A stretch of 64,000 nucleotides of DNA, from the sequence record KT184315.1; one strand, 5' to 3'. The notes beneath the pieces are model-generated. The model had not been told where the DNA came from, searched no databases, and saw only the letters and a list, made by a program, of their open reading frames with translations. How positions within the stretch are numbered: the first letter of the stretch is position 1; each line of letters begins with the position of its first letter. Shown here piece by piece: positions 50,929-51,714 of the stretch. Origin of the DNA: Enterobacteria phage KhF3. The position numbers and the translations under genes are program-made.

Positions 50929-51714
50929 TTAGTTCTTTGCGTCTAAGAAGGTAACTTCTGGTGAAGAGAAGATTGCCTCGATATCCTCATCAGTTCTTGC
51001 ATAGATATAAGCTTCTGCATCACTACCAAATGTTACAGCAATTCTGTGATTGCTCTTTGACAGGTGGGTAACTAGAGCGTTACTTAGAGACATCTTTTCA
51101 ACCGGAGGGTTACTTTGATGTATCTTACCTTTTCTTCGTCTGAAGAGGGTAACTGCATTATCCGTGAACACAACTACACCTGCAAAGTATTCTGGTTCAC
51201 AGTAGTTCTCCCAACCTGAGCGTAACTTGTGGTACATCTCTCCTTCATAGACATATAGATAAACATCTACACTCTTCATCACCTGATTAATGATAACTGT
51301 GACGGCTTGAGGGTCTAGCCCACCGATACCTGCACCAATCATAGGTAACCCGACTTTCTTCAACTGATTGACTTCACAGTATCTGTTAAGCTGTTTCAAA
51401 GATGACTCTAAAGCACTGTATCGGGCATCTTTACCAGTCTTAAGCTGAGTGTAAAGGTTAGCTATACGACCTTGTTTTAAACGTGCTACAGAGAAATTAC
51501 CCAGTAAATTTTCACAGGGTTTGTGTCCTATACCACCTGCATATAGATAAACTTCTGTATCGGTCTCATATGCTTTTGGGTAAAGTTTAGAAATCTTGTC
51601 AGCGATACCTGCACCCATTAAATTCATACAGTTGCAACCGTGACCGATGATGTCAAACTTACCTTTATCAAATGCGGCAAAGATATCACCATTGATTATT
51701 TTTACAATACCCAT
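50929..51714 (-). CDS. Macro-domain protein (ADP-ribose binding/processing) with C-terminal extension
   Basis: GDIF...DIIGHGCNCMNLMGAGIADKI and LPMIGAGIGG match macro-domain motifs (N..N.L.GGG..AI; FPAISTGVYG). Confidence 0.6.
   Translation of the reverse strand: MGIVKIINGDIFAAFDKGKFDIIGHGCNCMNLMGAGIADKISKLYPKAYETDTEVYLYAGGIGHKPCENLLGNFSVARLKQGRIANLYTQLKTGKDARYSALESSLKQLNRYCEVNQLKKVGLPMIGAGIGGLDPQAVTVIINQVMKSVDVYLYVYEGEMYHKLRSGWENYCEPEYFAGVVVFTDNAVTLFRRRKGKIHQSNPPVEKMSLSNALVTHLSKSNHRIAVTFGSDAEAYIYARTDEDIEAIFSSPEVTFLDAKN

Follow-up and report, generated by a model that had tools for sequence, protein, structure and literature searches.

A two-domain macro protein of the Felix O1-like phage KhF3 as a candidate AdfM-type eraser of DNA ADP-ribosylation

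Phage KhF3 encodes an orphan macrodomain protein whose homologs include T4 Tk.4/AdfM and the DarG macrodomain. The protein has the macro fold, conserves the residues of the ADP-ribose-binding loops, and carries a second folded domain at its C terminus. On balance, we favor the view that this gene is the Ounavirinae AdfM, whose product would most likely shield replicating phage DNA from host DarTG2. During infection, DarT2 would attach ADP-ribose to thymidines within TNTC motifs wherever phage DNA is single-stranded, and would thereby block replication. In the macro domain (residues 1–157), Asn28 and the two glycine loops would hold the ADP-ribose, and the domain would hydrolyze the ribose-base bond, yielding normal DNA and free ADP-ribose. 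Given the homology to T4 Tk.4, the anti-DarTG2 genetics of T4, and the in vitro activity of PhiKZ AdfM, the protein most likely serves to take ADP-ribose off the thymidines of phage DNA. The activity of the KhF3 protein itself we infer by analogy with these relatives.

The macro gene and its surroundings

The window analyzed here is the whole 64,000-nt stretch of Enterobacteria phage KhF3 (sequence record KT184315.1), a Felixounavirus (Felix O1-like) genome. Its macro gene (Table 1) is well represented in sequence collections: ekra, TP1, HMD-P8, SP4, GEP101, 35FD, and wV8 are among the phages whose annotation includes this 786-nt CDS, and more than 250 phage genomes already annotate the gene as a "putative phosphatase" or "macro domain protein." A match to phrog_335 spans the full length of the 261-aa protein (E = 4e-113). 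The stop codon of the preceding zinc-ribbon-like ORF (TAA, 51715–51717) abuts the ATG of the macro gene (51712–51714), so that the two could be translationally coupled.

Table 1. Coordinates of the KhF3 macro gene, its protein domains and motifs, and flanking elements
Feature	Coordinates	Strand	Basis and remarks
Two-domain macro + CTD protein	50929..51714	-	261 aa + TAA stop; complete CDS, ATG start
Macro domain, residues 1-157	51244..51714	-	Pfam, Foldseek, BLASTP; T4 Tk.4/AdfM-like, TARG1/DarG-like fold
Asn28, counterpart of PhiKZ AdfM Asn23	51631..51633	-	Invariant (18 family members); aligns with PhiKZ gp104 N23
First ADP-ribose-binding glycine loop, M33-G-A-G-I-A38	51601..51618	-	M33, G34, A35, G36, A38 invariant, I37 nearly (18 family members)
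Gln90 in invariant N-L-Y-T-Q motif	51445..51447	-	At TARG1 catalytic Lys84 position in both the HMMER and the MAFFT alignment with TARG1
Second glycine loop, G127-A-G-I-G-G132	51319..51336	-	G127, A128, G129, I130, G132 invariant (18 family members); G131 not
CTD, residues 158-261 (104 aa)	50932..51243	-	Linker helix 158-167, six beta-strands (179-239), closing helix 242-250; orphan, lineage-specific
Shine-Dalgarno-like GGGAGAG	51722..51728	-	Read from sequence; 7 nt upstream of macro gene start, within 3' end of preceding gene
66-aa CxxC...CxGCGC zinc-ribbon-like ORF, upstream of macro gene	51715..51915	-	ORF list; phrog_2210, function unknown
Intrinsic terminator directly 3' of macro gene	50858..50899	-	17-pair stem, then T-run

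The original prediction had the gene heading the late-left block. Instead, it is the last gene of a tightly packed minus-strand run that starts after a terminator-like site (53259..53242) and ends at the intrinsic terminator; a Rho-independent terminator is annotated at the equivalent position in phage wV8. Besides this terminator, its neighbors are spanins and small phage ORFs without known function. No darT toxin gene was found among the neighboring ORFs, so the macro gene is a phage-encoded orphan without a cognate toxin. The same strand block contains rIIA, rIIB, and NARP1, and the neighborhood holds rIIA, rIIB, and anti-defense genes. The NAD+-related genes mentioned in the original prediction are indeed present, as the NARP1 pair of a Namat-like gene (59198..60979) and an Adps-like gene (61025..61921). 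This pair is functional in the Felixounavirus Bas63 (NARP1 paper). The main text of the PhageMaP study of Bas63 does not mention the macro gene.

The macro gene bears the marks of an accessory anti-defense gene, since it lies outside the essential gene modules, among small genes of unknown function, and exists as two alleles exchanged between phages with near-identical flanks. Across Felixounaviruses these alleles are discrete, with ∼42% identity to one another, and their flanks are otherwise 96–97% identical. In phage contig L005, the macro gene is 41% identical to that of KhF3, yet the adjoining zinc-ribbon-like ORF shows 100% amino acid identity, with eight synonymous differences in 201 nt.

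The macro domain and its likely substrate

The signature segments from which a macro domain had been predicted are all present (G9-D-I-F12, N28-C-M-N31-L-M-G-A-G-I37, and L123-P-M-I-G-A-G-I-G-G132), and the assignment holds by profile and by fold. Pfam PF01661 matches residues 25–141 over profile positions 2–117 of 118, scoring 32.4 bits (E = 1e-7) against a curated gathering cut-off of 22 bits. The AlphaFold2 model (pLDDT 85.6) has a three-layer alpha/beta/alpha macro fold, and Foldseek matched it to many solved macrodomains with a probability of 1.0 and target TM-scores of 0.7–0.85. TARG1 and DarG macrodomains occupied ranks 1–6 and 8–10, making TARG1/DarG (ALC1-like) the closest fold class. 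Human TARG1/OARD1 (PDB 4j5r, 4j5s) was the top solved structure both by sequence (E = 1e-5) and by fold (E = 4e-10, with a TM-score of 0.83 on the target for 4j5r), and the best matches by these two measures also included DarG macrodomains from Thermus and from M. tuberculosis (E = 5e-9 by fold for DarG 5m3e).

The MGAG loop of the phage protein aligns with those of TARG1, T4-like Tk.4, and PhiKZ AdfM. By comparison, the catalytic residues of TARG1 and DarG are missing: Gln90 stands in place of TARG1 Lys84 and DarG Lys80, and Gly131 in place of TARG1 Asp125, the second member of the TARG1 catalytic pair. The chemistry therefore cannot be the Lys/Asp mechanism of TARG1. Gln90 is nevertheless no argument against an AdfM-like function, since T4 Tk.4 has Gln at the same position; the NLYTQ motif that places it there is common to the KhF3 protein and to the Tk.4 proteins of T4 and PP01. 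The macro domain is under strong purifying selection (dN/dS = 0.035). This constraint, together with the conservation of the catalytic-site Asn and of the loops, fits an enzyme and does not discriminate between its possible substrates.

The case for DNA as the substrate comes from the two characterized phage relatives. T4 Tk.4 belongs to the same PHROG (phrog_335) and aligns over query residues 3–157 and T4 residues 2–152 of 155 with 34% identity (BLASTP, E = 3e-24), a level that does not by itself fix substrate specificity. The two proteins have the HGCNC, MGAG, NLYTQ, and P-x-IG-x-GI motifs in common, and both are orphan macrodomains of lytic E. coli myoviruses without an adjacent DarT, although the genomic neighborhood of T4 tk.4 is unlike that of the KhF3 gene. 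A transposon screen on DarTG2 yielded T4 tk.4 (adfM, for "anti-DarT factor Macrodomain") and no other gene, and T4 became DarTG2-sensitive once the gene was cleanly knocked out; this evidence for protection is genetic and comes from a 2025 preprint (bioRxiv 10.1101/2025.11.20.689424). Enzymatic de-ADP-ribosylation of DNA has been shown only for the PhiKZ protein, which is more distant from the KhF3 protein than is T4 Tk.4. PhiKZ AdfM (gp104), which is imported into the phage nucleus, strips the ADP-ribose added by DarT2 from an oligonucleotide in vitro, and its N23A substitution weakens this activity (PMC13309987, Cell Rep 2026). Identity to this single-domain protein is 23% (E = 3e-4). Its catalytic-site Asn23 matches the invariant KhF3 Asn28, whereas it retains Thr-Lys (as PTK) in or beside the position of TARG1 Thr83-Lys84, a place where the automatic alignment is one residue off. 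Among the functions originally proposed, the removal of DNA marks is thus the one that sequence comparison with T4 Tk.4 and PhiKZ AdfM appears to back best.

The database names offer a different reading, and a rather unlikely one, in which the protein is a metabolite hydrolase, either a Poa1p-like ADP-ribose-1''-phosphate phosphatase or an O-acetyl-ADP-ribose deacetylase, and has no part in DNA repair. Both "phosphatase" and "O-acetyl-ADP-ribose deacetylase" occur among these names, which are inherited annotation and not tested activities. The source of the former is yeast Poa1p (PDB 6lfq–6lfu), an ADP-ribose-1''-phosphate phosphatase with a similar N-terminal H-x-C-N-C / G-G-G-I-A region. Its match to the KhF3 protein (6lfu, residues 17–56) is marginal at E = 0.012, whereas T4-like Tk.4 matches Poa1p better (E = 2e-9), and nothing ties the phage protein to tRNA-splicing by-products. 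A possible role for such an enzyme would be to recycle NARP1 side-products to ADP-ribose. NARP1 is encoded on the same strand ∼8 kb away, and side-products could arise because ADPR-PP decays spontaneously to ADPR-cyclic-phosphate, a decay product found in Bas63 infections (NARP1 paper). However, the macro gene lies outside the NARP1 operon, none of its neighbors was recognized as a cyclic phosphodiesterase partner, and the two-allele pattern and a fast-evolving CTD would be left unexplained. To our knowledge, T4 lacks NARP1. It does have Tk.4, and the phenotype of tk.4 is DarTG2-specific (bioRxiv 10.1101/2025.11.20.689424), which also counts against this reading.

It is useful to ask as well whether the marks to be erased could be on protein or RNA. 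The protein might reverse ADP-ribosylation by other host transferases, such as CmdTAC-type modification of mRNA or ParT/RES-type toxins, with the CTD picking the substrate. TARG1-class macrodomains, its closest fold class, are known to process ADP-ribose attached to protein, DNA, or RNA. Moreover, the CTD could serve as a substrate adaptor, and the allele dimorphism is compatible with any arms-race target. Against this, CmdTAC is a strong defense against T4 despite the Tk.4 that T4 carries, so the family does not obviously neutralize ADP-ribosylation of mRNA, and DarT2 marks on DNA are the only demonstrated targets of such phage macrodomains. We regard this possibility as improbable.

Still less probable, in our estimation, is that the protein acts as a sponge or hydrolase of ADP-ribose-derived immune signals, such as the cyclic-ADPR isomers and His-ADPR of Thoeris, with the CTD mediating oligomerization. 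The ThsA macrodomain of Thoeris II binds His-ADPR, and comparative genomics has proposed soluble ADPr derivatives as the main targets of phage macro domains. Yet none of the papers found in our literature search describes an experiment in which a phage macrodomain acts in this way, and the closest characterized homologs work on DNA adducts. Degradation of immune signals had also been among the original proposals, and it gained no support here.

A C-terminal domain restricted to one lineage

The KhF3 protein departs from the two characterized AdfM proteins in the domain that follows its macro domain. T4 Tk.4 consists of one domain (155 aa), and the single-domain architecture of AdfM proteins (about 155–160 aa) does not extend to the KhF3 protein, with its 261 aa and its extra folded 104-aa CTD. 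No such domain is present in T4 Tk.4 or encoded by the genes on either side of tk.4, and TARG1, too, lacks a C-terminal domain. The small genes that follow tk.4 in T4 were considered as fusion or fission counterparts of the CTD and were rejected (hhalign probability <1%).

The extension had been described at the outset as ∼110 residues without an obvious motif. It is real, spans ∼104 aa, and has no Pfam match. AlphaFold2 folds it confidently (pLDDT 80–86) as a separate, beta-rich unit, and no relative was detectable in Pfam, PDB, or BFVD. Pfam searches, run with the CTD by itself and with all 16 family members, produced no reproducible match; the best one, a PH domain, appeared once at E of about 0.1–0.16, and a PH-like fold was dismissed as it had no significant sequence or structure match. 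A word-indexed homolog search with the CTD alone also returned nothing, a blank that an exhaustive HMM search traced to the sensitivity of the index. This exhaustive profile search, over 1.84 billion representative proteins, found the CTD only as a fusion with this macro domain and only in Ounavirinae-like myoviruses; apart from spurious matches, it returned macro-fused relatives and fragments. The spurious matches included PQQ/BamB-type beta-propeller blades, whose long, multi-stretch alignments cover a single hairpin.

The CTD is a real, selectively maintained module. Relatives in other genera and in Pectobacterium phages keep it even where identity has dropped to 18–24%, and its dN/dS of 0.28 indicates purifying selection, yet its rate of evolution is ∼8 times that of the macro domain. 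Its net charge among relatives ranges from −4 to +5, and on these grounds a conserved DNA-binding surface and a DNA mimic were both rejected.

An architectural parallel is DarG, in which an N-terminal macrodomain is likewise followed by a C-terminal noncatalytic domain, so that the KhF3 CTD occupies the place of the DarT-binding domain. DarG (NF048014; PDB 5m31, 5m3e, 5m3i) was the sole NCBIfam and PADLOC match, which covered the macrodomain part only and scored 47.6 bits, far under the 250-bit cut-off. The C-terminal domain of DarG is also longer (about 180 aa compared with about 100 aa in KhF3), with no detectable similarity in sequence or fold. A 339-aa protein, P0026, that had been considered as a possible DarG for C-terminal comparison proved to be a Tk.4-like macro domain fused to PF20274, and the paper on PhiKZ AdfM gives no sequence of DarG.

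A further possibility, which we consider unlikely though worth stating, is a two-pronged orphan antitoxin of an origin independent of DarG, in which the macro domain erases the DNA marks and the CTD blocks DarT2, or another defense ADP-ribosyltransferase, by binding it directly. If so, each of the two alleles would suit a different toxin variant, which would make the pair a natural specificity switch, and the CTD would represent a novel fold for inhibiting toxins. For the favored AdfM reading, one may speculate that the CTD is an accessory specificity or targeting module that binds a toxin or a replication-fork partner.

Implications for Felix O1-like phages

The two-domain protein is a variant of a known anti-defense enzyme in which the CTD and its fusion to the macro domain are lineage-restricted. 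This may be relevant in several ways. First, typing, food safety, and therapy directed at Salmonella and E. coli make wide use of Felix O1-like phages, and knowing which defenses these phages disarm helps to predict host range. Second, NARP1 consumes free ADP-ribose, and a metabolic link between it and the macro enzyme could, speculatively, exist. Third, the lineage-restricted CTD offers a defined and testable way into the question of how an eraser enzyme gains specificity or potency in phages, and the discrete allele pair, swapped in cassette-like fashion between phages with near-identical flanks, offers a second. Finally, if the protein is indeed an AdfM, DarTG2 counter-defense would reach a third large group of myoviruses beyond the T-even and jumbo phages.

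Gene and transcription unit

The macro gene is a complete open reading frame at exactly the coordinates of the original prediction, and its product contains all three macro-domain signature segments quoted there. The tail of the preceding gene, whose stop codon directly adjoins the macro ATG, contains a ribosome-binding-like sequence, GGGAGAG, 7 nt 5′ of the macro gene. The 3-kb region around the gene is closest to Enterobacteria phage XTG1 (99.7% identity) and is 90–99% identical to ∼200 Felixounavirus genomes (Ounavirinae; phages of E. coli, Salmonella, and Shigella).

From ∼44 to 64 kb, every gene lies on the minus strand. 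Upstream of the macro gene are rIIA, rIIB, a lysin, an HAD/PNK-like gene, a terminator-like site, the spanins, and four small genes of unknown function. A strong intrinsic terminator follows directly; thus, the macro gene, which had been thought to head the late-left block, is instead the last gene of its transcription unit. The same TTTT(T)CATTTC sequence trails both terminator-like hairpins, perhaps as a common terminator or restart signal. Some 450 nt separate the macro-gene terminator from the next minus-strand ORF, and this gap holds four direct repeats matching CTGCACNNTTNNNAAATGA, each up to ∼34 nt. No further copies exist in the 64-kb window, where chance would yield 0.04; the repeats may serve as tandem promoters or as binding sites for a regulator.

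The macro protein may have a partner in the zinc-ribbon-like protein encoded just upstream; at the latter's position, a distant relative (L004:5810-6001) encodes an unrelated 63-aa CxxC...CxxC mini-protein. Farther upstream, the gene named “polynucleotide kinase” in relatives has no Pfam match here, and its homologs give only weak or faint HAD_PNKP matches. Since its product carries an HAD-type DIDGV motif (ILADIDGVLT), it may be a phosphatase only.

Features of the macro gene region and related loci in the window
Feature	Coordinates	Strand	Remarks
Macro gene	50929..51714	−	ATG start, 261 codons, TAA stop
Strong intrinsic terminator	50899..50858	−	Directly 3′ of macro gene; annotated in phage wV8
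CTGCACNNTTNNNAAATGA repeats	50680-50855		Starts 50680, 50725, 50764, 50837
Next minus-strand ORF	50408..50220	−	
66-aa CxxC...CxGCGC zinc-ribbon-like protein	51715-51915	−	phrog_2210; last gene upstream of macro gene, stop abuts macro start
75-aa ORF	51908-52135	−	Two genes upstream of macro gene
Terminator-like site	53259..53242	−	Between HAD/PNK-like gene and spanins
“Polynucleotide kinase” of relatives	53746-54441	−	phrog_3970
471-aa protein	33352-34767	−	DUF2828 and DUF7788, its sole Pfam matches in the neighbor scan
Namat-like (NAPRTase/NAMPT_N) gene	59198..60979	−	Counterpart of NARP1 operon
Adps-like (PRPP-synthetase fold) gene	61025..61921	−	Counterpart of NARP1 operon

Macro domain and its likely substrate

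The assignment to the macro superfamily is sound. Residues 25–141 match nearly the entire Pfam Macro profile (PF01661; E=1e-7) at 32.4 bits, above the curated cut-off of 22, so that chance resemblance does not explain the match. In an AlphaFold2 model of the full-length protein built on 18 family members (mean pLDDT 85.6, pTM 0.86), the best match among solved structures is the human macrodomain enzyme TARG1 (4j5r; E=4e-10, TM 0.83 on target), followed by the DarG macrodomains of Thermus aquaticus and M. tuberculosis (5m3e, 5m3i, 5m31), with alphavirus and coronavirus macrodomains ranking behind. The best PDB match by sequence is also TARG1 (E=1e-5), in agreement with the fold search. DarG, the antitoxin of the DarTG2 defense system, is likewise the sole NCBIfam match (47.6 bits, macrodomain part only) and the sole PADLOC match (E=4e-13). 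However, the protein is not DarG: the NCBIfam score is far below the cut-off of 250, and both a DarG-type C-terminal domain and darT are missing.

Across the family, both glycine loops (MGAGIA 33–38; GAGIGG 127–132) are conserved, as is Asn28. In contrast to TARG1, whose catalytic lysine is shared with DarG, an invariant N-L-Y-T-Q motif places Gln90 at the position of Lys84, and Gly131 aligns with Asp125. In its catalytic residues, the protein is therefore not a TARG1-type enzyme, and the lysine replacement means that it must use a chemistry other than that of TARG1. This replacement is no argument against an AdfM-like function, since T4 AdfM has the same glutamine.

A tblastn search finds a related macro domain encoded in ∼2,800 phage genomes, mostly T4-like, where it is tk.4. 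T4 Tk.4 (NC_000866, 155 aa; residues 2–152) aligns with residues 3–157 at 34% identity (E=3e-24), and T4-like homologs share the HGCNC, MGxG, NLYTQ (glutamine included), and P-x-IG-x-GI motifs. The protein is therefore a member of the Tk.4/AdfM sequence family as well. T-even phages had previously been observed to resist DarTG2 through an unknown factor. In a T4 transposon screen, tk.4 was the single gene needed on DarTG2-expressing hosts; its clean deletion made T4 DarTG2-sensitive, and the authors named it adfM and proposed that it removes ADP-ribose from DNA (bioRxiv 10.1101/2025.11.20.689424). PhiKZ gp104, a more distant phage macrodomain also named AdfM, relieves DarT2 toxicity and, in vitro, strips a TNTC oligonucleotide of the ADP-ribose that DarT2 attaches; its N23A mutant is weakened (PMC13309987). 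Asn28 aligns with this N23.

Given this homology, a DNA ADP-ribosyl-glycohydrolase countering DarTG2 is the best-supported function of the macro domain, which would act like AdfM and the DarG macrodomain by removing ADP-ribose from DNA. Three other readings must be weighed. Felixounavirus records call the product “putative phosphatase,” “macro domain protein,” “O-acetyl-ADP-ribose deacetylase,” or “hypothetical protein,” and it falls in phrog_335 “phosphatase” (E=4e-113). A metabolite phosphatase or deacetylase would account for the names of these kinds, and could be tied to side-products of NARP1: the NAD+-related genes originally predicted are real and match this operon, which in Felixounavirus Bas63 rebuilds NAD+ from ADP-ribose and nicotinamide. 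We consider it unlikely, since it leaves unexplained the T4 phenotype and the allele pattern described below. Removal of the ADP-ribose that other defense transferases attach to protein or RNA seems rather unlikely too, because CmdTAC defends well against T4, a Tk.4 carrier. That the protein binds or degrades ADP-ribose-derived signals is quite improbable; we found no precedent in the literature searched. Free ADP-ribose is both the NARP1 substrate and a product of macrodomain hydrolysis.

An orphan C-terminal domain and two alleles

The C-terminal extension, predicted to lack an obvious motif, indeed has none: Pfam matches nothing at residues ∼158–261 in the query or any of 16 family members. 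It nevertheless folds in the full-length model into a helix (158–167), six β-strands (179–183, 188–194, 197–201, 213–218, 225–229, and 235–239), and a closing helix (242–250), and stays confident when modeled alone (pLDDT 80.1, pTM 0.73). A PDB profile search gave no match, and Foldseek against BFVD returned solely the homologous SUSP2 protein. When 1.84 billion representative proteins were searched exhaustively with an HMM, 14 matches emerged; all genuine ones are macro+CTD proteins of ∼250 aa or their fragments; the others, β-propeller repeats aligning at a single hairpin, were rejected. Thus, in none of these databases could a relative of the domain be detected beyond its own family. It is also unrelated to the genes following tk.4 in T4-like phages, which were ruled out as counterparts.

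The domain occurs in 246 records of cultured phages, consistent with Ounavirinae (taxonomy checked for a subset: Felixounavirus, Suspvirus, and Mooglevirus), in more distant proteins of ∼92-kb Pectobacterium phages, and in metagenomic contigs that keep the same gene order, rIIB–lysin–HAD/PNK-like–small ORFs–macro. Neither the phage records nor the 1.84 billion proteins contain it standalone or joined to a non-macro partner. A 339-aa metagenomic protein joins a Tk.4-like macro domain with NLYTQ to a different C-terminal domain, PF20274; AdfM-type macro domains have therefore gained C-terminal partners more than once. A comparison of eight major-allele genes gives dN/dS values of 0.28 (CTD) and 0.035 (macro domain), which mark the CTD as a constrained, functional domain evolving ∼8 times faster. 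Its net charge varies from −4 to +5 among relatives, which speaks against a generic surface for binding or mimicking DNA.

The gene exists as two alleles. L005, a metagenomic Felixounavirus contig, shares 97% identity with the window over the stretch from rIIA through the small ORFs and 96% on the downstream side of the macro gene, repeat region included (96%). Yet no DNA-level alignment of the two macro genes is possible from about codon 48 on, and the proteins share 41% identity (53% macro domain, 24% CTD). The 75-aa ORF is a second cassette-like hypervariable gene, its protein barely alignable with that of L005:5560-5787 despite 96–97% identity of the surrounding DNA. Between these two diverged cassettes, the zinc-ribbon protein is 100% identical, with 8 synonymous changes in 201 nt. 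The variant allele appears in 13 GenBank phage records (95–100% identity); all other Ounavirinae copies there are ∼42% identical to it, with no intermediates. Such cassette-like swapping of two old alleles, in genomes that are otherwise almost clonal, typifies genes that face variable host defenses.

Publications of 2025–2026 described the enzyme family and its role, and the gene, annotated in many Felixounavirus records and in phrog_335, is therefore already known and catalogued; its second domain and likely role are not described in the literature or records we searched. Three features are new relative to published AdfM proteins: the fused orphan CTD, the confinement of this domain to Ounavirinae-like phages, and the existence of two alleles. 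On balance, we lean toward an AdfM-type DNA de-ADP-ribosylase countering DarTG2, in which the CTD would be an accessory module for specificity or targeting. This domain offers experiments a clean and accessible target.
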